Of a stretch of 64,000 nucleotides of DNA, positions 19,308-58,658 are shown piece by piece. The stretch covers positions 466 to 64,465 of the forward strand of contig JALUVJ010000014.1 of NCBI GenBank assembly GCA_027020665.1, given 5' to 3'. The first letter of the stretch is position 1, and each line of letters starts with the position of its first letter. The notes under the pieces were generated by a model. The model had not been told where the DNA came from. It made no database searches and saw nothing but the letters and a program-made list of their open reading frames with translations. Position numbers and translations under genes: made by a program. Origin of the DNA: Nitrospira sp. GTDB taxonomy: Bacteria > Nitrospirota > Nitrospiria > SBBL01 > JAADHI01.

Positions 19308-19319
19308 ATCATGAAGCGG

Positions 19320-20528: not shown

Positions 20529-20536
20529 CGTTCCTC

Positions 20537-40322: not shown

Positions 40323-40333
40323 GATGTTTTCTC

Positions 40334-41341: not shown

Positions 41342-41351
41342 GTTTTTCGCG

Positions 41352-42605: not shown

Positions 42606-43194
42606 GTGTCATCCCTCCTCCGGTCTCTTGTTGATGCTGTCGGACGTACAGATAGGCTTCTTTTGCGGCGGCGCTGTTCTTTTGGGCGATCGTCCCGGTG
42701 AAACGCTGTTGAACAGCTTCTTCCACGCTTTTTAAGGTGATTTGACCGGAAATCGCCGCAAATGCACCGACGAGGGCGATATTGGGCAGGGGCCGTCCGA
42801 TGTGTTTCAGCGCAATCCCTGTGGCGGGCAGGCCGCAGAAATGCCCGGCGGGAAAGGATGAAACAAAGTCCTCAATGCCCAGTGCCGCTGCATCGCGGGA
42901 GGCGTTGAGAATCAAACGGCCCGTTTCCGGGTTCAGCCCCGAAAAAAGATCGACGTGGTGCAGCAAGGTCGCATCCTGCACGATGACGGCATCGGCCTGC
43001 ATCACCGGTTCGCGCAGACGAATCTTTCGGTCGTCGATGCGACAGAAGGACATGACCGGCGCGCCCATGCGCTCTGAGCCAAAGCTCGGAAAGGCCTGGG
43101 CGAAACGGCCGTCCAAAAACGCGGCGACGGAAAGAATCTCCGCCGCGGTGACAACGCCTTGTCCGCCGCGCCCATGAATGCGGATCTGAAACAT
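42589..43194 (-). CDS. 2-oxoacid:ferredoxin oxidoreductase gamma subunit
   Basis: 201 aa starting IRIHGRGGQGVVTAAEIL, typical of gamma subunits. It is the first gene of the operon. Confidence 0.85.
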   Translation of the reverse strand: MFQIRIHGRGGQGVVTAAEILSVAAFLDGRFAQAFPSFGSERMGAPVMSFCRIDDRKIRLREPVMQADAVIVQDATLLHHVDLFSGLNPETGRLILNASRDAAALGIEDFVSSFPAGHFCGLPATGIALKHIGRPLPNIALVGAFAAISGQITLKSVEEAVQQRFTGTIAQKNSAAAKEAYLYVRQHQQETGGGMTHAAAN

Positions 43195-43269
43195 CGGGAT
43201 CGCTCACGGGGATAATATTGAATTGAAATTGTATCAATCCTGCACGGGAAAAGTCCATCATCCGCATTT

Positions 43270-43292
43270 CCAAAATCAGCGATTGATTTTGG
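43270..43292. repeat. Palindrome CCAAAATCA-GCGAT-TGATTTTGG
   Basis: Perfect 9-bp inverted repeat between the nuoN stop and the porG start. It shares the AAATCAG/CTGATTTTGG arms with 27960-27985. Confidence 0.5.
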
Positions 43293-43366
43293 GGGATTGC
43301 CAAGCACGGCAATGCGATGTGCGGCGAAGGGAGACGCTCCGCGGCGGGATGAAAAAGGCGTTGATT

Positions 43367-44833
43367 TTATTTCGGAATCAAATCCGCAAACACAGAGCTG
43401 GCGGTTACAGAGGCCTGAATGAAAGGATCGGGCCAGATACCCAGTAGGAGGACGCCTGCGATGCTGACGTAAATGGCGATTTTGAGCGGCGTCGAAATAT
43501 GGATCGGGGTGTATTCTTTCGGTTCGACAGAGTAGATCTTTTTGACGACGATGAGATAATAATAGAATGAAATGACCATGTTGATGAGCGCAACGGCAAC
43601 GATGAAGATGAGCCCCTGATGTACGGCGGCGACAACGACGTAAACTTTCCCGATGAATCCGGCCAGCGGCGGCACGCCCGCCAAGGAGAGTAAAAAGACC
43701 AGCATGGCGAAGGCCATTAAAGGCGAGCGCCGATTGAGTCCGACAAAATCGTCGATATCATCTTTGTCGGTTAAATTTTGGAAAATGATGACGACGACAA
43801 AGGCGCCAATGTTGGCAAAAAGATATGTGAGGATGTAGAAAAGAATAGATTCCACGCCCATTTGTGTGCCGGCGGCCATGCCGATGAGCACGGTGCCGAT
43901 ATGCGCGATGCCGGAGTAGGCCAAAAGGCGTTTCATGTTTTTCTGCGCGATGGCGGTGATGTTGCCGTAGGTCATGGATAAGACGGCAATCGAAACAATC
44001 ATCCATTGCCAGTCGGCTTTCAGTTCCAAGAAGGTGCCAAAAACAACACGCAGGAAAATCCCGAAGGTCGCCGCCTTCGGGACGACGGAAAGATAGGCGG
44101 TGACGGTTGTGGGTGCGCCCTGATAAACATCCGGTACCCAGACATGAAAGGGCACCGCGCCTAGTTTGTAGCCAATGCCGACAAAGATGAAAAGAAGTCC
44201 GATGGTGAGGCCGATGGTGTATTCGGGCGGGTTTGCGGCGATTTCTTCAAAAAGCAGAGTGCCGACTTCACCGTACACCAGAGAAACGCCGTAGGCGATC
44301 AAGGCGGCTGAAAGGGCACCCAGGATAAAAAATTTGATCGCTGCCTCGTTGGATTTCAGGTTGTCACGTAAGTAGGCGACGAGAATGTAAAATCCAAAGG
44401 TTGAGAATTCCAGGGTGATGAAAAGGGACAAAAAGTCATTTGCGGAGACCATGAACATCATGCCGAGTGCTGAAAAAAGCAGCAGGAAATAATATTCTCC
44501 CCGGAAATAAGGGATCTTTTCCATGGCCTCGATGGAGGCCAAAATCATCACGATGGTTGAAAGCAAAATGAAGATCTTGAAAAAGATCGCCAGAGGATCC
44601 AGCACAAACATGCCGCTGAAAGAAGTGCCGCCGGTGCCGTCGATGCCGTAGCCGATGAGTTGAAGGGTAATCAAGGCCATACCTGAGACGGAGAAATAGG
44701 CCAATTTGGGTTTTGAGAGTTTTGGGCAAAAGACGTCCATCATCAAAACAACGCAAGAGAGCAGTGTCATCCACAGTTCCGGTGCGATGAGCCGTAGGTT
44801 CAGGTCGGCAAGGGTCATAATTTCGGGCGTCAT
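43367..44833 (-). CDS. nuoN: NADH-quinone oxidoreductase subunit N
   Basis: 488 aa polytopic protein with FITLEFS (TM5 Glu), FHVWVPDVYQGAPT and KRLLAYSGIAHIG. It is the last gene of the locus. Confidence 0.85.
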   Translation of the reverse strand: MTPEIMTLADLNLRLIAPELWMTLLSCVVLMMDVFCPKLSKPKLAYFSVSGMALITLQLIGYGIDGTGGTSFSGMFVLDPLAIFFKIFILLSTIVMILASIEAMEKIPYFRGEYYFLLLFSALGMMFMVSANDFLSLFITLEFSTFGFYILVAYLRDNLKSNEAAIKFFILGALSAALIAYGVSLVYGEVGTLLFEEIAANPPEYTIGLTIGLLFIFVGIGYKLGAVPFHVWVPDVYQGAPTTVTAYLSVVPKAATFGIFLRVVFGTFLELKADWQWMIVSIAVLSMTYGNITAIAQKNMKRLLAYSGIAHIGTVLIGMAAGTQMGVESILFYILTYLFANIGAFVVVIIFQNLTDKDDIDDFVGLNRRSPLMAFAMLVFLLSLAGVPPLAGFIGKVYVVVAAVHQGLIFIVAVALINMVISFYYYLIVVKKIYSVEPKEYTPIHISTPLKIAIYVSIAGVLLLGIWPDPFIQASVTASSVFADLIPK

Positions 44834-46461
44834 TTTATGCTCTCGTCTCCAATGTGGGTGCTCAGCTTTGTTTGTTGCGCGATGGCGCTTCCGGCTGTGC
44901 TGTCAAATCGGGCCAAAATAGGGGTAACGCCTTTTTCGATCACGCTGATAAATTTCCCCGGAAAGATGCCGAAAAAGAGCGTGAAGAAGACCAGAAGCAC
45001 GAGCGGAAGGCGCTCATACCAGCTGCGCGCGTCTTTGACGTCGGGCAGGGCCGGATTGAGTTTTCCAAAAAACATGGTGCGCGTCATGCGAAAATAGTAG
45101 GCCCAGGTGATGACAACAGCGAGGGCGGCGATGATGGTTTGAATCGGATAAATTTCCCAGGCGCCCATGAAAACCATGATTTCACCCACAAAGTTCATGC
45201 CGCCGGGCAGGCCGAAGGAGGCCGCTCCACCGACCACAAAACAGGCGGTGACAAAAGGCATCTTATGTACGAGCCCGCCCAAAGAAGGGATATCCAAGGT
45301 CTTGGCCTGATAATAAATAAAACCCGCAAGCGCGAAGAGCAGCCCCATGGCCATTGCATCGGCAAAAAGGAAGAAGACGGCGCCTGTTAGGCTGATGGTA
45401 TTGAGTGAGGCCATTCCTAAAAAAATATATCCCATATGCCCCACGGAGGAATAACCCACGACAAACTTGGTGTCTTTTTGCAAAAAGGCGACGAGGCCGC
45501 CGTAGATAATGTTAAAAATACAAATAATGGCCACAAGCGGCATCCATTCAGCCGTGGCTTCCGGAAAGAGATAAAAACAAATCCGGATAATGGTAAAGTG
45601 CCCCAGTTTTTTCAAAACCCCCGCATGCATCATGCTGGCGGCAGGCGGTGCCGCTGCGTAACCTACGGGAGACCAGGAATGAAAGGGAAAAATCGCTGCA
45701 ATGGGGGCAAAGCCGATAAAAATGAGGAGAAAACCGATTTCTTTGACCCCCAGTGATAGGTTTCCTTTTTCACCGATTTCAAGCAGGTCAAAGGTATTCA
45801 ACCCGCTTTTTACGTAAACAAGCAGGATGCCCATGAGGGCGACGACGGCGCCGAATGAGAGATAAAGCGTCAACTTCATCGCCGCGTATTCTTTGCTGTT
45901 TTTATTGAAATTCAGGATGAAGCCGACTGATTCTCTTTTTTCCTCTCCGGCCAGATTGATATGGCCTTTCATGTCTTTGTAGCCCTTTGTGTGTCGGCCC
46001 CACATGATCAGGAAGAGATACATGGGGATCACGGAAAGCTCATAAAAGAAGAAAAGGAAAAAAAGATCCAGCGACATGTAAACTCCCATTGTCGCCGAAC
46101 CGAGTACGAGCAGGTTGATATAAAATTCTTTCAGGCGGTCTTTAATATCCCAGGAGACAAAAACGCCGCAAAACATGAGCAGGGCGGAGGCCAAGACCAT
46201 CGGCGTCCCGATGCCGTCAACGCCTAAATAAAAGGAGATGCCGAGCGTTTGAGACCAAACGGTTCGACTGATAAATTGAAAACCGCCTTGCGAGACATCG
46301 AAGGTATAAAAAAGGTAAAGCGATGCCAATAAAGAGAGCCCGCTAAAAAAGGCTGCGATGCCCCGCACGACATCCTTTTGCGTATTCGAAATAAAAAACA
46401 GAACCGTCGCACCCGCAAACGGGGCAAAGAGAATGATCGATAAGAGGTAGTCGTTGATCAT
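44830..46461 (-). CDS. Divergent NuoM-like antiporter subunit (second M copy)
   Basis: 543 aa with FFFYELSVIPMY, FHSWSPVGYAAAPPAASMMHAG and VVGYSSVGHMG. A ~35-residue hydrophilic insert lies after TM5, relative to the neighbouring canonical NuoM. Confidence 0.75.
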   Translation of the reverse strand: MINDYLLSIILFAPFAGATVLFFISNTQKDVVRGIAAFFSGLSLLASLYLFYTFDVSQGGFQFISRTVWSQTLGISFYLGVDGIGTPMVLASALLMFCGVFVSWDIKDRLKEFYINLLVLGSATMGVYMSLDLFFLFFFYELSVIPMYLFLIMWGRHTKGYKDMKGHINLAGEEKRESVGFILNFNKNSKEYAAMKLTLYLSFGAVVALMGILLVYVKSGLNTFDLLEIGEKGNLSLGVKEIGFLLIFIGFAPIAAIFPFHSWSPVGYAAAPPAASMMHAGVLKKLGHFTIIRICFYLFPEATAEWMPLVAIICIFNIIYGGLVAFLQKDTKFVVGYSSVGHMGYIFLGMASLNTISLTGAVFFLFADAMAMGLLFALAGFIYYQAKTLDIPSLGGLVHKMPFVTACFVVGGAASFGLPGGMNFVGEIMVFMGAWEIYPIQTIIAALAVVITWAYYFRMTRTMFFGKLNPALPDVKDARSWYERLPLVLLVFFTLFFGIFPGKFISVIEKGVTPILARFDSTAGSAIAQQTKLSTHIGDESIK

Positions 46462-46661
46462 GCCTTGTCCTTAAAACAGATTTCCGCTACATCGAGTGTT
46501 GCGCGACGTGTGAAGGCCAATATTTGTGTCAGCATGGCCATCAGGCTTTCTTGAAGGGCCTCGCGTGAGTTTGCGTGGCAGTTCACGCCGGGGACTTCTT
46601 CTACCCAGCCGACCCAGACTCTGGCATCTTGTTTGAGAATCGCCGTATATTTTTGTTGCAA
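46458..46661 (-). CDS. HicB-like (UPF0150-type) small protein embedded in the nuo operon
   Basis: 67 aa. KYTAILKQDARVWVGWVEEVPGVNCHANSREALQESL fits the HicB-like antitoxin pattern (beta-strands, E-x-PG, then a T/S-x-E-E-A-L helix). The TTG start lies 13 nt after the nuoM stop, with GGAG upstream. The stop overlaps the next gene start (ATGA). Confidence 0.55.
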   Translation of the reverse strand: MQQKYTAILKQDARVWVGWVEEVPGVNCHANSREALQESLMAMLTQILAFTRRATLDVAEICFKDKA

Positions 46662-46674
46662 GTTGTGTTGCTCC

Positions 46675-48252
46675 TTACTTTCTAAGTGCGAATTTGGATG
46701 ATGTTTCCGGTACCGTCGTTTCTGTAATTACCGTGGCGGTGCCAAGCCGATCCGTAATAAATTGTACGGAGCCATCCATCATTTTTAAAAAGGGGAAGGG
46801 ATAAATCCCCATCCAGAGAATCACGACCGTAAGCGCGGTGCAAATACCGATCTCGATGCGATCCAAATCGACAAGGGTTTTATTTTTCGGATTCTTCAAT
46901 TCCCCCATCATCAGACGTTGATACAGCCAGAGCAGATAGGCTCCGGCAAGCAAGACTCCGATGAAAGCGGGGGCGGCAAGTTGCCAAGAGTTTTTCATTG
47001 CGCCGATGAGGATCATCAATTCCCCCACAAAACCGTTTGTGCCTGGGAAGGCCAGTGAAGACAAGCTGATAATGAGGTAAAACACTGCCAAAATGGGCAC
47101 CTGTTTTGCGAGGCCGCCGTATTCCGAAATCTCCCGCGTGTGGCGGCGGTTGTAAAGAAAACCGACGACAAAAAAGAGTCCGGAAGTAGAGATCCCGTGG
47201 TTAATCATTTGAATGATACCGCCTTGGATGCCGTCGGCGTTCAGGGCAAAAATCCCTAAAATCACAAAACCCAGATGGCTGATGGAGGAATAAGCAATCA
47301 GCTTTTTCATGTCGTTTTGCGCAAGTGCGAGCAGTGCGCCGTAGATGATGCCGATGACGCCCAAAATCGACATGAGCGGCATAAAATAAAGTGAGGCTTC
47401 CGGCAATAAAGGCAAGGAAAAACGCACAAAGCCGTAAGTCCCCATCTTCAAAAGCACTCCGGCCAGCAGCACACTGCCTGTTGTGGGTGCTTCGACGTGT
47501 GCATCCGGCAGCCATGTGTGAAAAGGAAACATCGGCACTTTAAACGCAAAACCGAAAAAGAGCAGCGTAAAGACCCACATTTGTTTTGTTCGGGTAAGCG
47601 GTGCTCTCAATAAATCAAGAAAATCAAAAGAATAAGTGCCTGTTGCGCTGTGATGATTTAAATACAGAATGACAAAACCCACCAACATCAGCACACTGCC
47701 CAAGAGCGTGTAGAGCACGAATTTTAAAGAGGCGTAATTGCGCCGCTGCCCGCCCCAGGTTTTAATCAGGAAGTACATCGGGATCAGCATGATTTCCCAC
47801 AAGAGAAAAAAGAGAAAGAGATCCAGTGCGCAGAACACTCCGATCACGGTTGTCTCTAAGACAAGCAGACAGATGATATATTGTTTGAAATAGTTCTTGA
47901 TGCCCTTCCAGGAGAACCCCAGGGTCAAGACCGAAAGAAAGGTGGTGAGTACAACCAGCAGAATGCTCACGCCGTCCACACCGACATGGTAGCTAATACC
48001 CAGGGGGGCGATCCAATCATAACGTTCAGCGAATTGAATATCCGAGGTGCCGTTCTGAAAAAGAATGAGCGGAATGAGCGATAAAACAAATGAAGCAAGC
48101 GTAGCCAAAAGGGCAATCTGACGAATTTGCTGAGCATCCTTCATGAGGGAGACCAAGACGGCGGCGGCGAGCGGAATAAAAATTGTGAGGCTTAAGACCG
48201 GGAAGCCGACTTGACTGCTTGCGAATATTTCACCCAATGTGCTCAACATCAA
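46675..48252 (-). CDS. nuoM: NADH-quinone oxidoreductase subunit M (canonical copy)
   Basis: 525 aa with FLLWEIMLIPMYFLI, FHTWLPDAHVEAPTTGSVLLAGVLLKMG and KKLIAYSSISHLG. Confidence 0.9.
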   Translation of the reverse strand: MMLSTLGEIFASSQVGFPVLSLTIFIPLAAAVLVSLMKDAQQIRQIALLATLASFVLSLIPLILFQNGTSDIQFAERYDWIAPLGISYHVGVDGVSILLVVLTTFLSVLTLGFSWKGIKNYFKQYIICLLVLETTVIGVFCALDLFLFFLLWEIMLIPMYFLIKTWGGQRRNYASLKFVLYTLLGSVLMLVGFVILYLNHHSATGTYSFDFLDLLRAPLTRTKQMWVFTLLFFGFAFKVPMFPFHTWLPDAHVEAPTTGSVLLAGVLLKMGTYGFVRFSLPLLPEASLYFMPLMSILGVIGIIYGALLALAQNDMKKLIAYSSISHLGFVILGIFALNADGIQGGIIQMINHGISTSGLFFVVGFLYNRRHTREISEYGGLAKQVPILAVFYLIISLSSLAFPGTNGFVGELMILIGAMKNSWQLAAPAFIGVLLAGAYLLWLYQRLMMGELKNPKNKTLVDLDRIEIGICTALTVVILWMGIYPFPFLKMMDGSVQFITDRLGTATVITETTVPETSSKFALRK

Positions 48253-48264
48253 CGATTCCGCTTT

Positions 48265-50130
48265 CTAGTAAATTGCAACCATCCAGGTGGCCAGTTGTTT
48301 CCCGACCAGCAAATAAAGGTTCACCAAAACAAAGATGCCCACGATAATAATCATGGCGTAGTTATGGACCGATCCCGTTTGAAGCTTTTTGAAAATATGT
48401 GCGGCAATGTGATTCATGTAGCCGACGATGTTGATAAAGGCATAAACGACATATTTTTCAAAAAAGTTTGAAAACCAGGCACCGCCGAAAACGCCGCGCC
48501 CGATTTCATTCACCACGCGGTCGATCACAGCGATATCAAAGCGGCGGCAAAGTGCAACAAACCGCTTTGTGGGCCGGATGATCGCGCCTTTATATACCTC
48601 GATAATAAATTCTTCCCAGAGGGCAGTCGGCCCTTGTGCAAACTTCATAAAGCAAATGCCGCTTTTTCGGTAAAACCAATCGACATCAAGACTGATCGTC
48701 GCTTTGGGCCGCAGCTTTTCGACAAAGAAAAGAAAAGCCAAGGCCGCCGTCAACAGGATTTGAAACTGTACGAGCACATGACTGACTGTAAAGGTATGAT
48801 ATTCCACATCGGCATAAGGCAGCATGTCGATCAAGATATGCGGCTGTATGCCGATCAAAAAGCAAAGCATTGCGGCAAGGCTCATGCCGATGAGCATATT
48901 CGGCGGCGGGTCGGTGACCTTGAGTTGTTTGTCACGCCCGACGAATACATTAAAAGGCAGTTTCAAAGTCGTTGAAAGAAAGGTACCCGAAGCCGCCATT
49001 GTTAATAAGAGTGTTGTGATGGGACGATGCGCTTCGGCGGCGCCCGCGATAATCATGCCTTTGCTGACAAAACCGTTAAAAAGCGGCACGCCGGAAATTG
49101 AAAAACCTCCGATCATGTAGAGAACGGCGGTATAGGGCATTACTTTGCCGAGACCGCCGAGCTCCGTGGCTTTGCGTTTTCCCGTCATGTGAATGACTGC
49201 GCCCATGCCCATCATTAGCAGCCCTTTAAAAAGGATATTGTTGACGGCATGGGCCACTGCGCCGTTAATGGCGAGTTCCGTGCCGACCCCTACGGCGGCA
49301 ACCATGTATCCGACCTGAGAGATGATATGGTACGAGAGCAGCCGTCGTACATCATTTTCGATAATGGTCATGCAGACTCCGAAAAGAGTCATAAAGAGAC
49401 CGATAGAAACCAAGACTTCCACCCCCGGAAACCCGCGCACCAAAGTATAAACAGCGACTTTTGTCGTAAAGGTCGCAAGCCAAATCGTTCCCGTGACACT
49501 GCCTTCGGGATAAGCGTCGGGCAGCCAGGCGTGAAGCGGCGGCCCGCCTGCATTCACCAAAAATCCAAAGAGCATCAAGCCGCCGGCCCAGCCGCCGGGT
49601 GAAATGGCGTTAAAGCCGATGTCTCCGGTATTGACCACATGCACAATGATGCCGCCGAGTAGAAGCACACCACCCAGGGTGTGAATCAGCAAGTAACGAA
49701 AACCGGCTTGGACCGATCGGGCCGAACCGCCAAAGCAGATAATGAAGACCGAAGAGAAGGACATGATTTCCCAAAAGAAAAAGAGGGAAAAAAGGTCTCC
49801 GGCAAAAACCGCCCCCATTGCGCCGCCCGCATAAACGAGTGCCGCAATATGTTCGCGAATTGTCTTAAGATGGAATCCGTAAATCATGCCGATGAAAACG
49901 ATCACGGCGAAAATATAAGCAAAAACAAGACTCAGCTTGTCCACCCGGCCAAAGATCAGTTCCTGTCCCATGAGAGAAATGATGCCGTGAAGGCCTTCCG
50001 GTGTGTAATAAAGCGGCAGCAGGCAAAGTAAGGGTGCGCCGAGCAGAACCGTCTTTCGTTTCATTTCATCTAAAAAGGGCAGTGCGGCCGCCGCAATAAA
50101 GAAGAAGAGCGCAGGATGAACCCATATCAT
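48265..50130 (-). CDS. nuoL: NuoL-like antiporter subunit with C-terminal lateral-helix region
   Basis: 621 aa with FFFWEIM and LHAWLPDAYPEGSVTGT. The C-terminal ~140 aa carry VIDRVVNEIGRG ... KKLQTGSVHNYA plus a final TM, the NuoL signature. Confidence 0.75.
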   Translation of the reverse strand: MIWVHPALFFFIAAAALPFLDEMKRKTVLLGAPLLCLLPLYYTPEGLHGIISLMGQELIFGRVDKLSLVFAYIFAVIVFIGMIYGFHLKTIREHIAALVYAGGAMGAVFAGDLFSLFFFWEIMSFSSVFIICFGGSARSVQAGFRYLLIHTLGGVLLLGGIIVHVVNTGDIGFNAISPGGWAGGLMLFGFLVNAGGPPLHAWLPDAYPEGSVTGTIWLATFTTKVAVYTLVRGFPGVEVLVSIGLFMTLFGVCMTIIENDVRRLLSYHIISQVGYMVAAVGVGTELAINGAVAHAVNNILFKGLLMMGMGAVIHMTGKRKATELGGLGKVMPYTAVLYMIGGFSISGVPLFNGFVSKGMIIAGAAEAHRPITTLLLTMAASGTFLSTTLKLPFNVFVGRDKQLKVTDPPPNMLIGMSLAAMLCFLIGIQPHILIDMLPYADVEYHTFTVSHVLVQFQILLTAALAFLFFVEKLRPKATISLDVDWFYRKSGICFMKFAQGPTALWEEFIIEVYKGAIIRPTKRFVALCRRFDIAVIDRVVNEIGRGVFGGAWFSNFFEKYVVYAFINIVGYMNHIAAHIFKKLQTGSVHNYAMIIIVGIFVLVNLYLLVGKQLATWMVAIY

Positions 50131-51620
50131 TGGATCACCCCCTTTGCCAGCATCATGAAATAACTCGGAAAGAGACCGATCAAAAGCGAAAGCGTCGCGG
50201 TAACGACGAGCGGCACAACGACAAAATAAGGGGCTTCTTTAATGTCATCGTGGTGAATGCCGTAATTGCCCTCGGCCTCTGCCGAGCGGTCTGCGGGTTT
50301 GTGAAAAAAAGCCTTAAAAATGATGGGCACAAAATAGCCGACATTAAGCACCGTGCTTGCGAGCAGGACAAAAAGAATCGGAATTTGATCGGCTTCAATA
50401 CTGCCGAGCGCCAAGTACCATTTTGTAATAAAACCCGCCGCCGGCGGCACGCCGATCATGCTCAGGGTGCCGATGGCAAAAGCCGTCATTGTCCAGGGCA
50501 TTTTACGTCCGATGCCGTTGAGTTCGCTGATCTTGATTTTGTGTGTCGCCACATAAATCGACCCCGCACAGAAAAAGAGGGTGATTTTGGAAAAGGCATG
50601 GTTTGCAATGTGTATCACACTGCCCGTCATGCTGCTGGGTGTCAACAAGGCCGCGCCCAGAATGATATATGAAAGCTGACTTACGGTGGAATAGGCAAGC
50701 CGTGCTTTGAGATTATCTCGTGTGAGTGCGTAAACGGATGCCGTGATAATCGTGAATGACACAAAAAAAGCGGTTGGGATGCCCAAATGAAGTGATTGCA
50801 TCAAATCGACACCGAAGACATGAAAGATGATGCGCAACACGGAAAAGACGCCGACCTTCACAACCGCCACGGCGTGTAACAAAGCACTGACAGGCGTGGG
50901 CGCAACCATTGCTGCAGGCAGCCAGGCGTGAAAAGGCATGATGCCTGCTTTGGCGATGCCTGCGATAAAAAGAATGTAGATAACAGTCAACATCATCGGC
51001 GAGCCTTGACCGGAAAAAAGACCGTCTTGGGCAAAATCGAGGGTGCCCGCAACATTGTAGGTTAAAATCAACGCGGCCAGGAAAAAGGTTTTTGAGGTGC
51101 CGAAAAGGTAGATCATGTATTTTTTGGCACCCTCGAAAGAAGTCTGTGTGCCCTTGTGATTGACGAGCGGAAAGGTGAAAAAACTCAAAATTTCATAGAA
51201 AATAAAGAGTGTAAGCAAGTTTGCCGAAAGAGCAACGGCTAAGGCGGAAGAGACGCTGATGGCAAAACAGGAAAAATAGCGGGTCTGATGGATTTCTTTG
51301 GCCGTTCGCATGTAGCCGATGGAATAACAGGAGGTGATAATCCAAAGAAAAGAAGCGACGGTCGCAAAAAAGAGCCCCAGCGCATCCGCCTTAAAGGCAA
51401 TGGCAAGGCTCGGCACAAAGGTGAAAAGCGTGTATTCAAACGCGCCGCCGGCGAGCACATGCGGGGCCATTGAAATCACGATGAAAAAGGTGATTACCCC
51501 TGCGCCAATCGAGACGCCTTCTCTCAGATTGGGATCTTTGTCAAACTTTAAAACAATCCCTGCCGCGATCATCGAGACAAGTACGGCCAAAAGGGGCCTG
51601 ATCGATTCAACTGCTTCCAC
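50127..51620 (-). CDS. Additional MrpD/NuoL-M-N-family antiporter-like subunit
   Basis: 497 aa with FIFYEILSF, FHAWLPAAMVAPTPVSALLHA and ARLAYSTVSQLSYI. It has no lateral-helix tail. The stop overlaps the nuoL-like start (ATGA). Confidence 0.7.
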   Translation of the reverse strand: MEAVESIRPLLAVLVSMIAAGIVLKFDKDPNLREGVSIGAGVITFFIVISMAPHVLAGGAFEYTLFTFVPSLAIAFKADALGLFFATVASFLWIITSCYSIGYMRTAKEIHQTRYFSCFAISVSSALAVALSANLLTLFIFYEILSFFTFPLVNHKGTQTSFEGAKKYMIYLFGTSKTFFLAALILTYNVAGTLDFAQDGLFSGQGSPMMLTVIYILFIAGIAKAGIMPFHAWLPAAMVAPTPVSALLHAVAVVKVGVFSVLRIIFHVFGVDLMQSLHLGIPTAFFVSFTIITASVYALTRDNLKARLAYSTVSQLSYIILGAALLTPSSMTGSVIHIANHAFSKITLFFCAGSIYVATHKIKISELNGIGRKMPWTMTAFAIGTLSMIGVPPAAGFITKWYLALGSIEADQIPILFVLLASTVLNVGYFVPIIFKAFFHKPADRSAEAEGNYGIHHDDIKEAPYFVVVPLVVTATLSLLIGLFPSYFMMLAKGVIQ

Positions 51621-51651
51621 GCTAATCTTTACCTGCTTCCGATAATAGTGA

Positions 51652-51954
51652 TTACCACTTCATCAAGTTGAGTTCGTCAACATTCGTGACGGCTTTTCTA
51701 CGGAAGAGTACGATGATAATCGCAAGTCCGACCGCAGCCTCGGCCGCAGCAACCGTGATAATAAAAAGCGAAATCACTTGGCCGTCGATTGCGCCGTAAT
51801 GCCGCGAAAAGGCCACCAGGTTGATATTGGCCGCATTCAACATCAGTTCGATGGAAAATAAAATGATCAAAAAATTTTTCCGAATCAGCACGCCCACCAA
51901 TCCCACGACAAACATAATGGTGGAGACTGCAACGTAATAAGACAAAGGAATCAT
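51652..51954 (-). CDS. nuoK: NADH-quinone oxidoreductase subunit K
   Basis: 100 aa from the MIPLSYY start, with three TM helices. Has LFSIELMLNAANINLVAF and AAAEAAVGLAI motifs. The longer ORF-track form overlaps nuoJ and is rejected. Confidence 0.85.
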   Translation of the reverse strand: MIPLSYYVAVSTIMFVVGLVGVLIRKNFLIILFSIELMLNAANINLVAFSRHYGAIDGQVISLFIITVAAAEAAVGLAIIIVLFRRKAVTNVDELNLMKW

Positions 51955-51964
51955 AAAATCATTT

Positions 51965-52474
51965 CTAACGTGCGGGGACTTTTTTCGCCAAAACCAATGC
52001 CCCGATGACGGCGCCCAGCAAGATAACCCCCACAATTTCAAAGGGCAATAAATATTTAGTAAAAAGCGCGATCCCGATTTGTGCCGTATTGCCCAGGGTG
52101 TCTTCGGTGATCGGGCCTGTTTCGGGCGCGGAAGAAAACAGAGGGGATTGAAAAAGGCCGATTAATATTTCAAAAATCAGCACGACCCCGAAAAAGATCG
52201 CGATGCCCACTTGTTTGTGTAAAAATTTTTCTGCGGTTTTTAAATCCAGCAGCATGATGACAAAAATATACAAAACGAGCACGGCCCCGGCATACACGAT
52301 GACTTGCAGCGCCGCAATAAATTCCGCGTGTAAGAGTACAAAGAGACCTGCCACGTGCAGCAAGGTCGAAAGCAGGGCAAGCGAGCAATAAACGGGACTT
52401 CTTAAGCCAATCGTCAGAATAGATGAAACAATGGTGAGGGTCGCAAAATAGATGAAAAAAAGGAGTTCAACCAT
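51965..52474 (-). CDS. nuoJ: NADH-quinone oxidoreductase subunit J
   Basis: 169 aa with the AALQVIVYAGAVLVLYIFVIMLL motif. Confidence 0.85.
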   Translation of the reverse strand: MVELLFFIYFATLTIVSSILTIGLRSPVYCSLALLSTLLHVAGLFVLLHAEFIAALQVIVYAGAVLVLYIFVIMLLDLKTAEKFLHKQVGIAIFFGVVLIFEILIGLFQSPLFSSAPETGPITEDTLGNTAQIGIALFTKYLLPFEIVGVILLGAVIGALVLAKKVPAR

Positions 52475-52480
52475 CTGATT

Positions 52481-53056
52481 TTACTTTTTCTCTTCCTGTT
52501 CAGGTTCTTCTTGCCGTGAAGAGGGGAAACGATAACGATATTGACTTACGACCTCTTCATCTTCGCCTTCTTGATTGTGGGCAACGAGATATCCCTTTGC
52601 TTCGCGGTGCAATTTTTCGCCGATATCGTAGAGCTTCGTTTTATCGAAAATCAGATCTCTTTTATTGATGGTTGAATATTCATACATCTTGGTCATGGCC
52701 AAGGCGTTGACCGGGCAGGCCTCAACACAAAACCCGCAGAACACACATTTTGTAATATCAATATCAAAAGAGCTGGCATATCGTCTGACGACATATCCGT
52801 CTTTTTCATCCACTTCACTCACAACGGTAATACAAGCAGATGGGCAGGCCGCACCGCAAAGATCGCAGCCGACACAACGTTCTTCCTGACTTTCCTCATA
52901 TCGTAAGAGGCACAGCGCACCCCGTTGCGTATTGGGGAGAGCTGTTTTTTCATGTGGATATTGAAGCGTTACCTCTTTTACGAAGTAGTGACTGAAAACC
53001 AGCTTCAAAGCCTTCACGATTTCCACAAAAAGGAAGTTGTAGAGAATTTTTCTCAC
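52481..53056 (-). CDS. nuoI: NADH-quinone oxidoreductase subunit I (2x[4Fe-4S]), with acidic C-terminal tail
   Basis: 191 aa with CVGCDLCGAACP and CVFCGFCVEACP. Confidence 0.9.
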   Translation of the reverse strand: MRKILYNFLFVEIVKALKLVFSHYFVKEVTLQYPHEKTALPNTQRGALCLLRYEESQEERCVGCDLCGAACPSACITVVSEVDEKDGYVVRRYASSFDIDITKCVFCGFCVEACPVNALAMTKMYEYSTINKRDLIFDKTKLYDIGEKLHREAKGYLVAHNQEGEDEEVVSQYRYRFPSSRQEEPEQEEKK

Positions 53057-55848
53057 GCCGCATCCTCTGCGGAGAGGTTTTTCGCCGCATTTTTTCCGGC
53101 GTCCTCCATCGTGTCTTCGGCAGCATCTTCGGGGGTAATCACTCTCAAATCGAGGGAAGCCGAGGGTTCCAGGGTGACCGCACCGGTTTTGAAATAAATA
53201 ACCTTGCTCTTTGCATCAATTTCGGTGGCCAAGAGGTCTTTCACGGGAGGATCATTAAAATGAACGGGATAGTGAACGAGTCCCTTGGGCAGTTCCGGTG
53301 TGATTTCGATTTGAACTTCGAGTTGTCCCAGGGGCGATTTAATATTGACGGAATCACCCGTTTGCAGGTTCCCCAAGGCTTCCGCATCGGCTTCGCTGAT
53401 GTGCAGGACGGCCTTGTCGTAAATTTTCATCAGCCCTTTGTCGCGTGTCGTGAGTTTCCCGGAGTGATAAAGCACTTGTTGCAAGGAAAGCGTCATGGTA
53501 TTTTTCCGCGTATCCTGCGCCGGAGCAGCATAACGCTCCGGAATATCTTCGGCGAAGTTTTCAGGGAGATCGCTCGTCTCATGTACTTTGTCTTGTGCGT
53601 AATAGCCCGGCACCATCTGAGAAATTTCCCGGCGAATTTCTTCCACCGAATGATATTGAACGGGATGGCCGAGATGTTTGGATAAATCGGTTAAGATTTT
53701 CCAATCGGGCCGGGCCTCGCCTCTGGGATCAAAGGCTTCCGTGACACGATTGACTGCGCCCATAATATTGGTGTAAGTGCCTTCTTTTTCCGCAAAAGTC
53801 GCGGCGGGCAGGATGACATCGGCGATTTCTGCCGTTTCGCTCATGAAGGGGTCTTGGCAAACAATGAAGTCGATTTTTTCCAATGCCTCCCGTACCTTCA
53901 TCGAAGCGGGCAGGGTGCCGAGCGGGTTTTCACCCACCAGATAGAGCGCCTTGATTTCACCGCGATGCGCGGCTTCAATGATTTCGGAGAGGCTCAATCC
54001 GGGTGAGCCGCCCGTTGATTCGGGTAAAGACGCATGCCAAGCGTTTGCGAATTGTCGGCGCGCGTCTTCAGCGGCATAAGAAACTTGGCCCGGCAGAAAT
54101 TCGGGCACCGCGCCCATATCGACCGCGCCCTGTTCGTTGTTTTCCTCACAAACCGGGAGGATGCCTGCGCCTTCTTTTCTGAAAAGCCCGGTCAAAAGGG
54201 CAAGATCGATCAAACGCCGCACATTTTGATACGCGCCTTTTTCCGAAACGATGTCTTCACCCCAAAGCAGCACGCCACGTTTCGACTGCGCAAGCAGTAT
54301 TGCGGCTTCTTCTATTTTTTCCCATTCCAATCCGGTTTTTTCCGAAACCCTTGTCTCTGAAATCCGCGCGACCGCCTCTTTCAAGGCAGCGTAGGCTTCA
54401 GATTGTTTTTCGATAAAATCAGGGTCGGTCAAGCCTTTTGCAATCACCGCCTTAACCAGTCCCTGAATCAAGTCTCCTTCGGAATGCGGGGCAATCTGAA
54501 GGGGGTGCGTGGCGAGTTTCATGATTTTTGTTTCCGTGTCATCGGCGACAAGCAGTTTTCCTGCAAATTCGCTCATGGACGCCTTGACCCGAAGTGCGGT
54601 AATCGGGTTGGTTTCCGTCAGGTTTGAACCGATCATGAGAATTGCATCGGAAAGCGCGAGTTGTTTTTCATCGACGGTTGCGCCTCCGATATTTACGGTT
54701 TCGCGCAGGGCCAGCACAGAGTTCATGTGGCCGTAGCGTGCGGCGGTGTCGATGTTGTTGGTTTCCAAGATTGAACGCATTAGTCTCTGAAAAAGATACA
54801 CGCTTTCGTTTGTACACCGCCCGCTGATGAGTCCTGCAATCGCCTGTCCGCCGTGTGTCGCTTTGATGTCGTTCAAGCGTTTACCGATGTCGATCAGTGT
54901 TTTAAACCAAGGTGCTTCTACAAATTGCCCTTCGGTTTTCACAAGAGGTTTCGAAAGCCGTGCGTCACTCATCACATATTGAAAGCCAAACCGGCCGCGT
55001 ACACAGATGCCGCCGTGCCCTTCGCCGGGTTCTACGTCAAAACCCCACTTGGATTCGTAGGAGAGTTCTGAGGTGACCACCATAATGTCACGCGCATTTG
55101 TTTCAAGTGTGATCGAGCAGCCGTCCGAGCAGAAGCTGCAGGTGGTTTCCGTCTTTTTGAGTTGCCAGGGTTTAAAGGTGTATTTCGAAAACTTGCTGAC
55201 AATGGCGCCGACCGGACAGACGGCCAGACAGTCGCCGCAGAATTCGCAATAGAGGGTTTCTCCGCCGTGTGCGCCGACGTGCTTCTGTTTGTCTTTTTTA
55301 TAAAAACAGAGGGCGTCGACCAGTTGCACTTCCTTACAGATGTTGATGCACTGGCCGCAGAGGATGCAGCGTTCCATGTTGAAGTCGAGCACCAGGCTGC
55401 GCGTATCTTCCGGGATTTGTTTCCGTTTACCTTCTTTGATGTCATAAACTTCGAGGTCGTAGGCCATGTCCTGCAATTCGCACTGGCCGTCTTTGTCACA
55501 GACGGGACAATCCAGGGGATGGGTTTTGAGGTGTTTTTCAACGGCACCTTTTCTGGCCTCGACTATTTTATCCGTCCCGGTTGAGACGACCATGCCTTCG
55601 GTCACCTTGGCCGTGCAAGCACGGACATTATGTTTTTTGCCCTCGACTTCAACCAAGCAGAGGCCGCAGGAGCCAAAAGGGGAAAAGCTGTAATGGTAAC
55701 ACATGGCCGGGAGTTGTGTGCCGGTCCATTTTACCGCGTTGAAGAGGGAGGAGCCCTCTTCGGCGGTTACGACTTGACCGTCGATGGTCAACTCGACCAT
55801 CTTTTTGACCGCATCGGGTGCAGCACTTTGTTTGCCGACGCTACTCAT
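53053..55848 (-). CDS. nuoG: NADH-quinone oxidoreductase subunit G-like (2Fe-2S, His-ligated and Cys 4Fe-4S clusters, molybdopterin-oxidoreductase fold)
   Basis: 931 aa with CYHYSFSPFGSCGLCLVEV...C, HPLDCPVCDKDGQCELQ, CILCGQCINIC, CEFCGDCLAVCPVGA and CSFCSDGC. Confidence 0.8.
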   Translation of the reverse strand: MSSVGKQSAAPDAVKKMVELTIDGQVVTAEEGSSLFNAVKWTGTQLPAMCYHYSFSPFGSCGLCLVEVEGKKHNVRACTAKVTEGMVVSTGTDKIVEARKGAVEKHLKTHPLDCPVCDKDGQCELQDMAYDLEVYDIKEGKRKQIPEDTRSLVLDFNMERCILCGQCINICKEVQLVDALCFYKKDKQKHVGAHGGETLYCEFCGDCLAVCPVGAIVSKFSKYTFKPWQLKKTETTCSFCSDGCSITLETNARDIMVVTSELSYESKWGFDVEPGEGHGGICVRGRFGFQYVMSDARLSKPLVKTEGQFVEAPWFKTLIDIGKRLNDIKATHGGQAIAGLISGRCTNESVYLFQRLMRSILETNNIDTAARYGHMNSVLALRETVNIGGATVDEKQLALSDAILMIGSNLTETNPITALRVKASMSEFAGKLLVADDTETKIMKLATHPLQIAPHSEGDLIQGLVKAVIAKGLTDPDFIEKQSEAYAALKEAVARISETRVSEKTGLEWEKIEEAAILLAQSKRGVLLWGEDIVSEKGAYQNVRRLIDLALLTGLFRKEGAGILPVCEENNEQGAVDMGAVPEFLPGQVSYAAEDARRQFANAWHASLPESTGGSPGLSLSEIIEAAHRGEIKALYLVGENPLGTLPASMKVREALEKIDFIVCQDPFMSETAEIADVILPAATFAEKEGTYTNIMGAVNRVTEAFDPRGEARPDWKILTDLSKHLGHPVQYHSVEEIRREISQMVPGYYAQDKVHETSDLPENFAEDIPERYAAPAQDTRKNTMTLSLQQVLYHSGKLTTRDKGLMKIYDKAVLHISEADAEALGNLQTGDSVNIKSPLGQLEVQIEITPELPKGLVHYPVHFNDPPVKDLLATEIDAKSKVIYFKTGAVTLEPSASLDLRVITPEDAAEDTMEDAGKNAAKNLSAEDAA

Positions 55849-55851
55849 CGT

Positions 55852-57066
55852 TTATCGATCACACTCACCCATGACGATGTCATAGGTGCCGAAAATCGTA
55901 ATAATATCGGCGATCATATAACCTTTCGCCATATGATCAAAGGCGCCCATGTGCACAAAAGAAGGGGCGCGGATTTTCATACGGTAAGGTTTTCCGCCGC
56001 CTTGACTGACAATGTAAAAACCCAATTCGCCTTTGTGGGCTTCGGTTCCGCAATAGATATCGCCTTCGGGGGCGTTAAAACCGCCGGAATACAGTTTAAA
56101 TTGATAGATCATGCTTTCCATATCGGTGAAAACCCGTTCTTTGTCCGGCGCGACAAACTTCGGTAAATAGGCTTTATAAGGGCCTTTCGGCAGTTGGTCC
56201 AGGCATTGGCGGATGATTTTGCTGCTCTCTTTCATCTCTTCCATGCGGATCCAGTAACGGTCGTAGGTATCGCCTTTTGTGCCCAGGGGCACGGTCCACT
56301 CGACATGGCCGTATGCGCCGTAAGGACTGACTTTTCTGAGATCGTAGTCCACACCGGAGCCGCGCAAGGTCGGCCCCGTGAGGCCGTATGCGATGGCGTC
56401 CTCACCCGAAATCACCGCGATGTCTTTTGTGCGGGCCAGCCAGATCCGGTTTCGAATGAGCAAGGCATCGTATTCGGCGATTTTTTCGGGAAAGCTGTCG
56501 ATGAATCGGTATAAATCGTCGATAATTTTGTCGGTGAAATCCCGTTCGACGCCGCCCACACGGTACCAAGAGGTTGTCAAACGTGCGCCGCATAAATCGA
56601 CAAAGAGATCCAAAAGCACTTCACGATCCCGAAAGGTAAAAAAGAAGACTGTCATCGCGCCGATATCCAGGGCCTGCGTGCCGAGCCAGAAGAGGTGGCC
56701 GATGATGCGCTGGACCTCCGCGACGATGGTACGCAGGTATTCGGCGCGCCAGGGCACGGTGATGTCGAGCAGCTTTTCCACGGCGCGCACATAGGCGAAG
56801 TTGTTGTACATGGCGCAAATGTAATCCAGCCGGTCGGTGTGCGGGATGAATTGATTGTAGGTGATTTGCTCCGCGATTTTTTCGACGCCGCGATGCAGAA
56901 AGCCCAGTACCGGTTCGGACTTGATGACTTTTTCTCCTTCAAGCGTCACGATGACTTTCAGCACCCCGTGTGTCGAGGGATGCTGCGGGCCGAGATTCAG
57001 CAGGACCTCTTCCGTTTTTAGCAGCGGAAGCGATGCTTCTTCGGTCGGTGGGTTTTCTACAGCCAT
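55852..57066 (-). CDS. nuoD: NADH-quinone oxidoreductase subunit D
   Basis: 404 aa with LNLGPQHPSTHGVLKV and the C-terminal DIVMGECDR. Confidence 0.9.
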   Translation of the reverse strand: MAVENPPTEEASLPLLKTEEVLLNLGPQHPSTHGVLKVIVTLEGEKVIKSEPVLGFLHRGVEKIAEQITYNQFIPHTDRLDYICAMYNNFAYVRAVEKLLDITVPWRAEYLRTIVAEVQRIIGHLFWLGTQALDIGAMTVFFFTFRDREVLLDLFVDLCGARLTTSWYRVGGVERDFTDKIIDDLYRFIDSFPEKIAEYDALLIRNRIWLARTKDIAVISGEDAIAYGLTGPTLRGSGVDYDLRKVSPYGAYGHVEWTVPLGTKGDTYDRYWIRMEEMKESSKIIRQCLDQLPKGPYKAYLPKFVAPDKERVFTDMESMIYQFKLYSGGFNAPEGDIYCGTEAHKGELGFYIVSQGGGKPYRMKIRAPSFVHMGAFDHMAKGYMIADIITIFGTYDIVMGECDR

Positions 57067-57084
57067 AAGGTCTCTACCTTGCCG

Positions 57085-57621
57085 TTAATGTGGAAAATCA
57101 AAGGTATCTCGCCACCCTCGCCCCTGAATCGGAAAATTCTTCCGCAAGGGGTAGCCTTCATCGTATTCATCCGGCAGCAGAATACGTTTCATCTCGGGGT
57201 GATTGTTGAAACGAATGCCCATCATATCGTAAACCTCACGCTCCAAGTAATTGGCCCCTGCCCAAAGCGGGGTTACGGAATCAATGACACAATCATCTTC
57301 GGGCACGCGGGTTTTGAGGCGGATCTGGTGTTTTTTGCGAATGGAATAAAATTCATACACGACTTCAAAACGTTCCGCTTCGTTAGGAAAATCCACGGAA
57401 CTGATATGTATGGGATAATCAAAATCAAGTGCGGGGTCTTCTTTCAAAAAACGGCAGATCGAGAAGAGGCCCTCCCGTTTTAAATGGATCGAAAGATCGT
57501 CTCTAAAAAGCGTGGCGCCAATATAAAAATCGGCAAACTCCGCTTGGATTTTTTGGGCAAGCGGGTGATCTGCGCCGTTTTTCATGCCGCGAGGCACTTT
57601 AAAGGGTTTGGCTTTTCTCAT
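57085..57621 (-). CDS. nuoC: NADH-quinone oxidoreductase subunit C
   Basis: 178 aa from MRKAKPF, whose ATG overlaps the nuoB stop (ATGA). Has [16 protein letters not shown] and the LLPDEYDGYPLRK-like end. Confidence 0.8.
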
Positions 57622-58097
57622 GCTTTGATAAAGACCTTCTTTTTCATGATTTGAGCTTGCAGGGTCAACAAACCTTCCAATAGCGCCTCCGGGGTCGGGG
57701 GGCAACCCGGCACATAAACATCAACGGGTAAAAAACGGTCAACCCCTTGCACGACCGGATAGGCATCATAAATATTGCCCGATGTCGCGCAGGAGCCCAT
57801 CGCGATGACGTAGCGCGGTTCGGGCATTTGGTCGTAGACTTTTCGAATGACGGGCGCCATGCGGCGGCACACGGTGCCTGCAATAATAATTAGGTCGGAT
57901 TGCCGGGGCGATCCGCGAAAAATTCCCGCGCCGAAACGGTCCATGTCGTAACGTGAGGCGACGGCGGCCATCATTTCAATCGCGCAGCAGGCCAGACCGA
58001 AAACCATGGGCCAAAGCGAGCCTTTTCGGGCCCAGTTGACGGCATGATCCAGTTTCAGCGTAACAAAATTGGCTTCGAATTTGCCGGTCAGTCCCAT
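57618..58097 (-). CDS. nuoB: NADH-quinone oxidoreductase subunit B
   Basis: 159 aa with [15 protein letters not shown] and [10 protein letters not shown] cluster-N2 motifs. Confidence 0.9.
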
Positions 58098-58468
58098 TCA
58101 AGCCCTCCTTTTTTCCAGGCATACACATAGGCAATAATAAAGAGCGCGATAAAGATAAGCATTTCAATCAAACCGAAAAGACCGATTTTATTAAAAACAA
58201 CGGCCCAGGGGTAGAGAAAAGCCACTTCCACATCAAAGATGACGAAGAGCATGGCGATGATGTAGTAGCGGGCGGGAAAAGGGGTTCTGGCATCGGAAAT
58301 CGGTTCACTGCCGCATTCGTAGGGGGAGAGCTTTTCGGGGTCGTTGATGCGAACTTGGACAAAGTAGCTGAGGACGAGCGTGCCGATGCCAAAAACAAGG
58401 GAAACAAGGATAAAGATAAAGACCGGGATGTAATTGATTGGCGGCGCCGCATTAAGCATGTAAAGCAC
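58088..58468 (-). CDS. nuoA: NADH-quinone oxidoreductase subunit A
   Basis: 126 aa with three TM helices, and YECGSEP and [12 protein letters not shown] motifs. Confidence 0.85.
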
Positions 58469-58617
58469 TCCATATCAATGATAAAAGGTATTGCAGAAAA
58501 ATACGCGTCATAGTAGCGTGTTGAGCCAAGAATCTTCAATGAAGGAAAAGGCCTATTCTTTGGGGTTTTTATAGGTCTTTTGTACTAATAACACACCATA
58601 TATGGGAGATGAGATGC

Positions 58618-58652
58618 GTTCAAGGTCTCTCCGGAATGGAGAGACCTTGAAC
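58618..58652 (-). terminator. Perfect 15-bp hairpin 7 nt downstream of the TPR lipoprotein gene, upstream of the nuo operon
   Basis: GTTCAAGGTCTCTCC-GGAAT-GGAGAGACCTTGAAC, read directly from the sequence. No U-tract follows on either strand. Confidence 0.45.
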
Positions 58653-58658
58653 GGCGGA

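Follow-up and report, generated by a model that had tools for sequence, protein, structure and literature searches.

In the 64-kb window analysed here, by which we mean the whole stretch of contig JALUVJ010000014.1 under study, the operon at 43367-58468 on the minus strand encodes a complex I without NuoE, NuoF and NuoH, and it is a cluster of the 'Complex_I_3' type of Candidatus Manganitrophaceae (Nitrospirota). This identity follows because gene order and protein families match the published description. Complex_I_3, a cluster type credited to Yu & Leadbetter 2020 and Yu et al. 2022, was described in the latter paper as shared by manganese-oxidising Ca. Manganitrophaceae, and it combines two MrpD-like subunits, kin of the rhizobial 'green' type, with two NuoM and one NuoN, kin of the '2M' type, giving five ion-pumping subunits; the lateral helix of its MrpD2 is longer by an insertion of 26 residues (PMC9040806). 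The window has that gene order, two MrpD-like proteins in place of NuoL and an insertion of ~26 residues. Taken as a whole, our best explanation joins the Complex_I_3 identity to a reverse, quinol-to-ferredoxin function and to a NuoH supplied in trans, and we give this combination a probability of roughly 0.6.

The open reading frame (ORF) listing, with Pfam and NCBIfam matches, gives the minus-strand order nuoA-B-C-D-(G-like)-I-J-K-mrpD1-mrpD2-nuoM-(67-aa ORF)-nuoM2-nuoN, in which all 14 ORFs are intact and all spacers are 31 nt or shorter. Only 3 nt lie between the nuoD stop (TAA, 55852-55854) and the ATG of the G-like gene at 55848, and the stop of the G-like gene overlaps the GTG start of nuoI by 4 nt at 53053-53056, where the letters are GTGA. 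The G-like gene thus occupies the place, between nuoD and nuoI, where nuoE-F-G-H normally stand. An earlier sequence-only reading of this DNA had described gene packing that leaves no room for E/F or H, and a 3-nt spacer between nuoD and nuoG, and the junction sequences bear out both. Its overlap of nuoG and nuoI at these four positions also stands, but as GTGA and not as the ATGA it had given; likewise, the genes that it had labelled only as a 497-aa product and a 621-aa NuoL-like protein are present, but both are of MrpD type, with scores above the NCBIfam cut-offs.

The absence of nuoE, nuoF and nuoH at this locus is real. We searched all six frames of the whole window by tblastn with the 13 products of the E. 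coli K-12 nuo operon (NuoC and NuoD being fused there). NuoH found nothing better than E = 0.11 (26 bits), NuoE nothing better than E = 1.1 and NuoF nothing better than E = 2.9, in each case in an unrelated ORF; the remaining Nuo subunits match the locus at E values from 6e-15 to 4e-114. The Pfam families NADHdh (PF00146), Complex1_51K and 2Fe-2S_thioredx have no match in the 58 window ORFs that were scanned, which are essentially all of its plausible genes. The claim that no product here resembles NuoE, NuoF or NuoH therefore withstands both tblastn and the hidden Markov model search of the window that had been proposed as its check. A NuoH-like membrane segment fused to another product is ruled out, since each operon product is accounted for over its full length by its own family, and these products contain no unassigned hydrophobic sequence able to replace a subunit of eight transmembrane helices (TM).

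The arrangement is not peculiar to this assembly. A metagenome scaffold whose G-like protein is 99 % identical (L018 in our numbering of related loci) has the same 3-nt spacer and the same 4-nt overlap, and fifteen further loci from other assemblies all read A-B-C-D-G-I-J-K, among them Ca. Manganitrophus SB1, GAC4 and MFD03066, a Manganitrophaceae chromosome, marine metagenome-assembled genomes (MAGs) and Nitrospira bockiana. NuoH, NuoE and NuoF were found in none of the related loci (0 of 16), and in the fifteen the E. coli queries gave no tblastn match at 1e-3, so that the comparison of synteny advised by the sequence-only reading came out in its favour. The nearest relatives are L006, from the marine Ca. 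Manganitrophaceae MAG JAADHI01, and L011, to which most subunits are 88-94 % identical (NuoC 75-81 %, G-like 75-76 %); identity to freshwater Ca. Manganitrophus is 57-87 %. Most subunits are 88-94 % identical in 'Candidatus Manganitrophaceae bacterium M_MetaBat.18', the closest relative with a name of its own; the other close relatives carry generic Nitrospirota names, and the best match of the G-like protein among GTDB species representatives is 76 %. The window probably stems from a marine relative of Ca. Manganitrophaceae. Ratios of nonsynonymous to synonymous divergence (dN/dS) against L006 and L011 are 0.02-0.10 across the operon genes; dS is near saturation, which makes these ratios approximate, and dN lies far below dS throughout. 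In strain Mn1, the Complex_I_3 orthologues Ga0306812_1011558, Ga0306812_1011559, Ga0306812_1011562 and Ga0306812_1011565 are at about the 76th-83rd percentile of transcription under Mn-oxidising conditions (PMC9040806), and expression of the 2M cluster of N. moscoviensis is above the median (PMC6606698). Two things that would have undone the observation, an assembly artefact at the D/G and G/I junctions and a decaying, untranscribed paralogue, were considered, and on comparative data neither holds. The first is rejected because the junctions recur in 16 independently assembled loci, L018 among them, and the second by the 14 intact ORFs, the low dN/dS and the published expression of relatives. 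We found no point in support of either and regard their probability as negligible; the locus is an intact copy under selection, functional and not decaying.

The membrane arm carries the features that set Complex_I_3 apart. MrpD1 (497 aa, 50127-51620) matches NCBIfam NF006236, 'monovalent cation/H+ antiporter subunit D', over its full length at 736 bits (cut-off 663); it has no lateral helix, and TM5 Glu, TM7 Lys, TM8 Lys and TM12 Lys are all there. MrpD2 (621 aa, 48265-50130) matches NF009310, 'Na+/H+ antiporter subunit D', at 656 bits (cut-off 564) and ends in a lateral helix. Compared with the 590-aa MrpD2 of a four-pump cluster (L016, described below), it has 26 extra residues, as gaps of 2 + 24, within ...GGAWFSNFFEKYVVYAFINIVGYMNHIAAHIFKK..., a count for which our reference is L016 and that of PMC9040806 is a set of rhizobial sequences. 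The insertion lies in the C-terminal amphipathic lateral helix, is present in all 621-aa orthologues and has a homologous segment in the 2M NuoL of Nitrospira bockiana (L003). The first NuoM (525 aa, 46675-48252; TIGR01972, 600 bits) is 41 % identical to E. coli NuoM and has all four key charged residues, and the second (NuoM2, 543 aa, 44830-46461; TIGR01972, 406 bits, cut-off 264), the hallmark of the 2M type, is 57 % identical to the second NuoM of L003. NuoN (488 aa, 43367-44833) scores 428 bits against TIGR01770 (cut-off 333) and is matched by E. coli NuoN at tblastn E = 8e-65. Taking E. coli NuoM K234, NuoL K229 and NuoN K217 and the motif K-x6-H-x-W-x-P as reference, the TM7 Lys of the Glu-Lys pair is kept in MrpD1, NuoM1 and NuoN and is replaced by Asn193 in MrpD2 and by Ile254 in NuoM2. 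The same Asn occurs in every MrpD2-type protein and the same Ile in every second NuoM among the orthologues examined (L002, L003, L005-L007, L010-L013, L015 and L016), and the Nitrospira 2M cluster is no exception. All five antiporter-like subunits retain TM5 Glu, TM8 Lys and TM12 Lys/Glu.

The remainder of the enzyme is a Q-module of ordinary appearance. NuoD (404 aa, 55852-57066; Complex1_49kDa, E = 5e-115) keeps the GPQHPSTHG histidine motif, the tyrosine of ...ITY... and the C-terminal GECDR when aligned to E. coli NuoCD, and would accordingly be classed, on its motifs, as quinone-type and not hydrogenase-type; NuoB (159 aa, 57618-58097; Oxidored_q6), aligned to E. coli NuoB, keeps all four cysteine ligands of cluster N2 in its CC...C...CP motif. 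The roles of these residues at the quinone site and at N2 are presumably those of Nqo4 and the 49-kDa subunit in the Thermus and bovine structures. Because the His and Tyr motifs of NuoD and the N2 cysteines of NuoB are kept, quinone/quinol chemistry appears to be retained, and a NuoH-type chamber would therefore be needed. NuoA (126 aa, GTG start, 58088-58468; Oxidored_q4, E = 2e-38) is 86-92 % identical to its orthologues in L005-L011. NuoC (178 aa, 57085-57621; Complex1_30kDa) likely begins at ATG 57621, to judge by an ATGA overlap with the nuoB stop and by the 178-aa orthologue in L005, the mechanically called ORF reaching to a TTG at 57705. NuoI (191 aa, GTG start, 52481-53056; Fer4_7/Fer4) is matched by E. 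coli NuoI at tblastn E = 1e-28, NuoJ (169 aa, 51965-52474) belongs to Oxidored_q3 (E = 4e-37), and NuoK (100 aa, 51652-51954; Oxidored_q2) likely starts at ATG 51954, where the alignment to E. coli NuoK begins.

The sequence-only reading had picked out the missing H as the odd part of the locus, and we agree. No known member of the superfamily can do without NuoH, and to our knowledge all characterised relatives retain a homologue of it, namely Nuo, NDH-1, Fpo, Mbh, Mbs, Ech and Hyc/Hyf. Two options had been offered, supply of H in trans and a structurally novel assembly, of which copy counts favour the former; the latter does not stand as a discovery, for reasons given with the known systems below. 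Table S6 of PMC9040806 covers eight Manganitrophaceae genomes (five freshwater, three marine), with nuoB in 3, 3, 3, 3, 3, 2, 2 and 2 copies and nuoH in 2, 2, 2, 2, 2, 1, 1 and 1, and the nuoH that it lists for Mn1 (Ga0306812_10479) lies between the nuoF (Ga0306812_10477) and nuoI (Ga0306812_10480) of the canonical Complex_I_1. Because every genome has one nuoH fewer than nuoB, the copies of nuoH appear to be confined to canonical operons, with no orphan among them, and any NuoH in the present enzyme must then be borrowed from such an operon. We consider it most likely that NuoH is recruited in trans from a canonical nuo operon elsewhere in the genome.

An enzyme truly without NuoH would be one whose peripheral arm docks on the membrane arm with no ND1/NuoH-type subunit, its quinone chamber being different or absent and its acceptor another one. 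Such an enzyme would sit well with the lack of nuoH in all 16 clusters, which span 50-99 % identity in the G-like protein, with the lack of an extra, dedicated nuoH in the genomes, and with the expression of Mn1 nuoH, which does not exceed that of its canonical neighbours. We nevertheless judge it improbable: NuoD and NuoB keep the normal quinone-site and N2 residues, a canonical operon that includes nuoH accompanies the cluster in every genome known to have it, the operon products hold no spare hydrophobic sequence from which an 8-TM replacement could be made, and the retention of NuoH across characterised relatives is established knowledge.

The second peculiarity is the enlarged G-like subunit (931 aa, 53053-55848), an iron-sulfur protein related to NuoG and to the alpha subunit of formate dehydrogenases, with the Pfam domains Fer2_4, NADH-G_4Fe-4S_3, Fer4_Nqo3, Molybdop_Fe4S4, Molybdopterin and Molydop_binding. 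It has no TM-like segment and is predicted to be soluble, and every one of its homologues comes from Nitrospirota (Nitrospiria, Ca. Manganitrophus and Nitrospira). Its affinities would at first suit an active molybdenum or tungsten (Mo/W) formate dehydrogenase, and the whole complex a formate:quinone oxidoreductase, since the closest solved relatives are YjgC and FdsA-type proteins (E = 1e-109 to 1e-119, NuoG/75-kDa proteins following at ~1e-69 or weaker), the best NCBIfam match is Fdh-alpha (TIGR01591), and JGI labels its homologues formate dehydrogenase alpha. The Fdh-alpha score of 465 bits is below the cut-off of 666, however, as the score against the NCBIfam NuoG family is below its own, and the active site speaks against this possibility. 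The selenocysteine (Sec) at position 140 of E. coli FdhH (U140) aligns to Gly373 and the catalytic Arg333 to Cys567; in the nine homologues from Manganitrophus and Nitrospira the two positions are again Gly and Cys, Thr or Ser, the latter within a conserved (C/T/S)EExNEQG motif. With the Sec/Cys ligand of Mo and the catalytic Arg replaced in 10/10 aligned family members, an active formate dehydrogenase is rejected and a formate-linked complex seems to us very improbable; from these alignments the G-like subunit appears to be no formate dehydrogenase and to be catalytically dead.

What the G-like subunit does keep are the ligands of the 2Fe-2S cluster, of the His-ligated 4Fe-4S cluster and of the 4Fe-4S cluster heading the molybdopterin fold. 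It also has two complete CxxCxxCxxxC motifs (C161-C171 and C201-C211), which point to a 2x[4Fe-4S] ferredoxin domain at the place of the single cluster (N4) of E. coli NuoG, and would therefore carry one [4Fe-4S] cluster more than NuoG, as do FdsA, HoxU and [FeFe]-hydrogenases. It is plausible, judging by the motifs, that this additional cluster is a contact or exchange site for ferredoxin. A link to ferredoxin is supported because the G-like subunit seems not to be a formate dehydrogenase, because of the additional [4Fe-4S] cluster and because a POR-type gene cluster lies 172 nt downstream. Alternatively, the complex might work with a stand-alone NuoF-like flavoprotein, its partner then being NAD(P)(H) or a ferredoxin/NAD(P) pair in place of ferredoxin alone. 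FdsA-type G subunits normally dock a NuoF/NuoE-like module, as in FdsABG, and the core genome of Manganitrophaceae includes a non-operonal NuoF (Ga0306812_1011253) at the 95th expression percentile; set against this, neither the window nor any related locus has a gene for NuoF or NuoE, no NuoE-like partner of the stand-alone NuoF is reported, and the association is speculation in the paper cited for it. We think this arrangement unlikely.

In the explanation that we prefer, a Complex_I_3 enzyme with borrowed NuoH, the parts that the cluster encodes are a quinone-type Q-module of NuoB, C, D and I, the subunits NuoA, J and K, the catalytically dead, formate dehydrogenase-like G replacing NuoE-F-G, and a membrane arm with five antiporter-like subunits; NuoH is not encoded there and would most likely be taken from the nuoH of the canonical operon. 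The enzyme would run in reverse, proton or sodium motive force acting through the extended membrane arm to push electrons of quinol uphill. Their path would lead over N2 and then along the Fe-S clusters of NuoI and the G-like subunit, and it would end at an acceptor of low potential, most likely ferredoxin. Reduced ferredoxin would then feed the 2-oxoacid:ferredoxin oxidoreductases of the reverse tricarboxylic acid (TCA) cycle, one of which is encoded directly downstream. The hypothesis of reverse operation follows Chadwick, Lücker and Yu, as they are quoted in the relevant passages of PMC9040806 and PMC6606698.

Several points weigh against this explanation. Which way the electrons flow, which acceptor takes them, how many ions are moved and whether NuoH is part of the assembled enzyme are all points that we infer, and the existence of a canonical nuoH in the window's own genome is assumed from relatives. 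We know of no experimental precedent for one NuoH serving two sets of A/B/D/I/J/K partners. With two of its five antiporter-like subunits devoid of the TM7 Lys, an arm of 'five active pumps' is, on residue patterns, not assured, and the adjacency of the POR-type cluster is not conserved in L005 or L009. In Mn1, nuoH is transcribed about as its canonical neighbours are, not more (PMC9040806), which neither helps nor hurts the idea of sharing. Finally, these genomes have a conserved, highly expressed stand-alone nuoF (PMC6606698, PMC9040806), and the input module might be NAD(P)-linked or bifurcating.

In high-potential lithotrophs oxidising Mn(II) or nitrite, this cluster type is the leading candidate for the source of the reduced ferredoxin that the reverse TCA cycle requires, and no other complex I reported so far has as many ion-translocating subunits. 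If the enzyme had no ND1/NuoH at all, its quinone chamber would be differently built or absent, a first in the complex I superfamily; if one NuoH were shared by two complex I enzymes in one cell, this would be a weaker version of the same novelty and still unprecedented. The choice between a canonical NuoH in the assembled enzyme and none is of interest, although this window is not what raises it. Useful leads are the loss of Sec/Cys and Arg together with the extra [4Fe-4S] cluster in G, and the loss of the TM7 Lys in MrpD2 and NuoM2, which puts the assumed six ions per cycle in question.

Between nuoM (13-nt gap) and nuoM2 (4-nt ATGA overlap) lies a 67-aa ORF (46458-46661) with a TTG start and an AAGGAG 7 nt upstream. 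It is found at the same position in L007, L010 and L011 (48-77 % identity; dN/dS against L011 0.11); L005, L006, L009 and the freshwater genomes lack it at this locus. The sequence-only reading had called it HicB-like; there is indeed similarity of this kind, but only below threshold (UPF0150, E = 0.003; DUF1902, E = 0.008; PDB 1wv8, E = 0.12), with no Pfam match at E <= 0.001 and no NCBIfam match at E <= 0.01, and no HicA toxin gene adjoins it, its direct neighbours being nuoM and nuoM2. The product is a small soluble protein, possibly, to judge by these similarities, with a HicB/UPF0150-type fold, and it may be an accessory or assembly factor. A different small ORF, of 86 aa and unannotated, lies between mrpD1 and mrpD2 in Ca. 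Manganitrophus SB1 (L002, 16094-16354).

Downstream of nuoN on the same strand, the POR-type 2-oxoacid:ferredoxin oxidoreductase cluster (38694-43194) consists of a PorC-like gamma subunit (42589-43194), a PorA-like alpha subunit (41352-42605), a thiamine pyrophosphate (TPP)-binding beta subunit (40334-41341) and a 542-aa protein in which a GltD-like part, binding flavin adenine dinucleotide (FAD) and NAD(P), is fused to a PorD-type 2x[4Fe-4S] domain (38694-40322; Fer4_20, Pyr_redox_2, Fer4). The cluster matches Pfam POR, POR_N/PFOR_II and TPP_enzyme_C and, above cut-off, NCBIfam TIGR02175, NF009410 (766 bits, the GltD-like part of the 542-aa protein) and TIGR02179. With its GltD-PorD fusion it would resemble the five-subunit enzymes of aerobic reverse-TCA autotrophs, and we infer a functional link to the complex I operon. 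A scan of 42500-59500 for promoters and terminators was uninformative, with 49 terminator-like sites where 24 were expected, an excess due to T-rich membrane-protein genes, and none convincing between nuoN and porC. Upstream of nuoA the loci differ. The marine relatives L005, L007, L008 and L009 have a DabB/DabA-type pair for uptake of inorganic carbon and a P-II gene (~1-6650), and a gene for a tetratricopeptide repeat (TPR) protein comes directly before nuoA, where L005 carries an annotation for it; in the window, the TPR gene (58659-59129) stands there alone. Further away, the window holds a set for beta-oxidation of fatty acids (14064-23403 on the minus strand and 36267-38618 on the plus strand), complete with acyl-CoA synthetase, thiolase, 3-hydroxyacyl-CoA dehydrogenase, enoyl-CoA hydratase and acyl-CoA dehydrogenase, along with electron-transfer flavoprotein (ETF) alpha and beta, a fatty-acid cis/trans isomerase and an FAD-dependent oxidoreductase whose sub-threshold match to the ubiquinone-binding domain of ETF-QO makes it a possible ETF:quinone oxidoreductase. 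Such a set is noteworthy in a lineage regarded as chemolithoautotrophic.

Among known systems, FdsA and B. subtilis YjgC share with the G-like subunit their domain order and Fe-S complement (2Fe-2S, His-4Fe-4S, 2x[4Fe-4S] and a 4Fe-4S at the beginning of the fold for molybdenum bis-pyranopterin guanine dinucleotide), but the G-like subunit has lost the Sec/Cys ligand of Mo and the catalytic Arg, and its gene is embedded between nuoD and nuoI. A canonical 14-subunit Nuo/NDH-1 has the NuoE and NuoF module and a NuoH encoded with the cluster, and this locus has neither. Complex I relatives without E/F do exist as NDH-1 of cyanobacteria and chloroplasts, the archaeal Fpo and the epsilonproteobacterial Nuo, in which ferredoxin, flavodoxin or F420 replaces NADH. 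Each of these encodes its own NuoH homologue (NdhA, FpoH and NuoH), and NDH-1 and Fpo are without a NuoG-like subunit, whereas the cluster in the window keeps G and is without H.

Closer comparisons lie within Nitrospirota. Clade-3 '2M' operons lack nuoE, nuoF and nuoH and have an enlarged nuoG, according to the relevant passages of PMC6606698 (Chadwick et al. 2018 is also cited in PMC8115632), and the missing subunits of 2M-type clusters are documented by Mundinger et al. and Bayer et al. The Nitrospira clade-3 clusters resemble the present one in their separate nuoC and nuoD, a G homologue that is 50-65 % identical, a duplicated nuoM, the lack of nuoE, nuoF and nuoH and a homologous insertion in the lateral helix; they differ in that their only NuoL is lengthened (to 666 aa in N. 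bockiana) and that they have four pumps, where the window has MrpD1 and MrpD2 and five. In the four-pump 2M-type cluster L013 (Nitrospirota bacterium OFTM308), the 'NuoL' (14581-16533, 650 aa) is MrpD2-like, 56 % identical to the MrpD2 of the window and with the TM7 Asn, and it has a further insertion of ~26 residues upstream of the shared one that looks, from its sequence, like a local duplication of the ...D.xVID..VN... motif. Another locus, L016 (3491-19000; uncultured Nitrospirota bacterium ERP125453_co1_269), has nuoABCD, a G-like gene, nuoIJK, mrpD1, mrpD2, one nuoM and nuoN, that is, a four-pump arm of the 'green' type with an enlarged G and no H within Nitrospirota. It may stand as an intermediate between 2M and five-pump clusters; the end of its contig repeats the mrpD2 region at a 5016-bp offset, perhaps because of a duplication or a fault in the assembly.

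The rhizobial 'green' complex I likewise has two MrpD-like subunits in place of NuoL, but, as far as the relevant passages of PMC9040806 describe it (after Degli Esposti & Martinez-Romero 2016), it has one NuoM and an MrpD2 without the lateral-helix insertion. The closest counterpart remains Complex_I_3 itself, from which the window departs in its 67-aa ORF between the nuoM genes, absent from the freshwater genomes, in the POR-type cluster directly downstream and in having no ORF like the 86-aa one of SB1. Because the lack of E/F/H is published (PMC6606698) and the five-pump form is Complex_I_3 (PMC9040806), the suggestion of a structurally novel assembly is not upheld as a discovery. Both features entered the literature between 2018 and 2022, and the window adds another member to the group, with the same gene order, the same five antiporter-like subunits and the same 621-aa MrpD2 bearing the 26-residue insertion.

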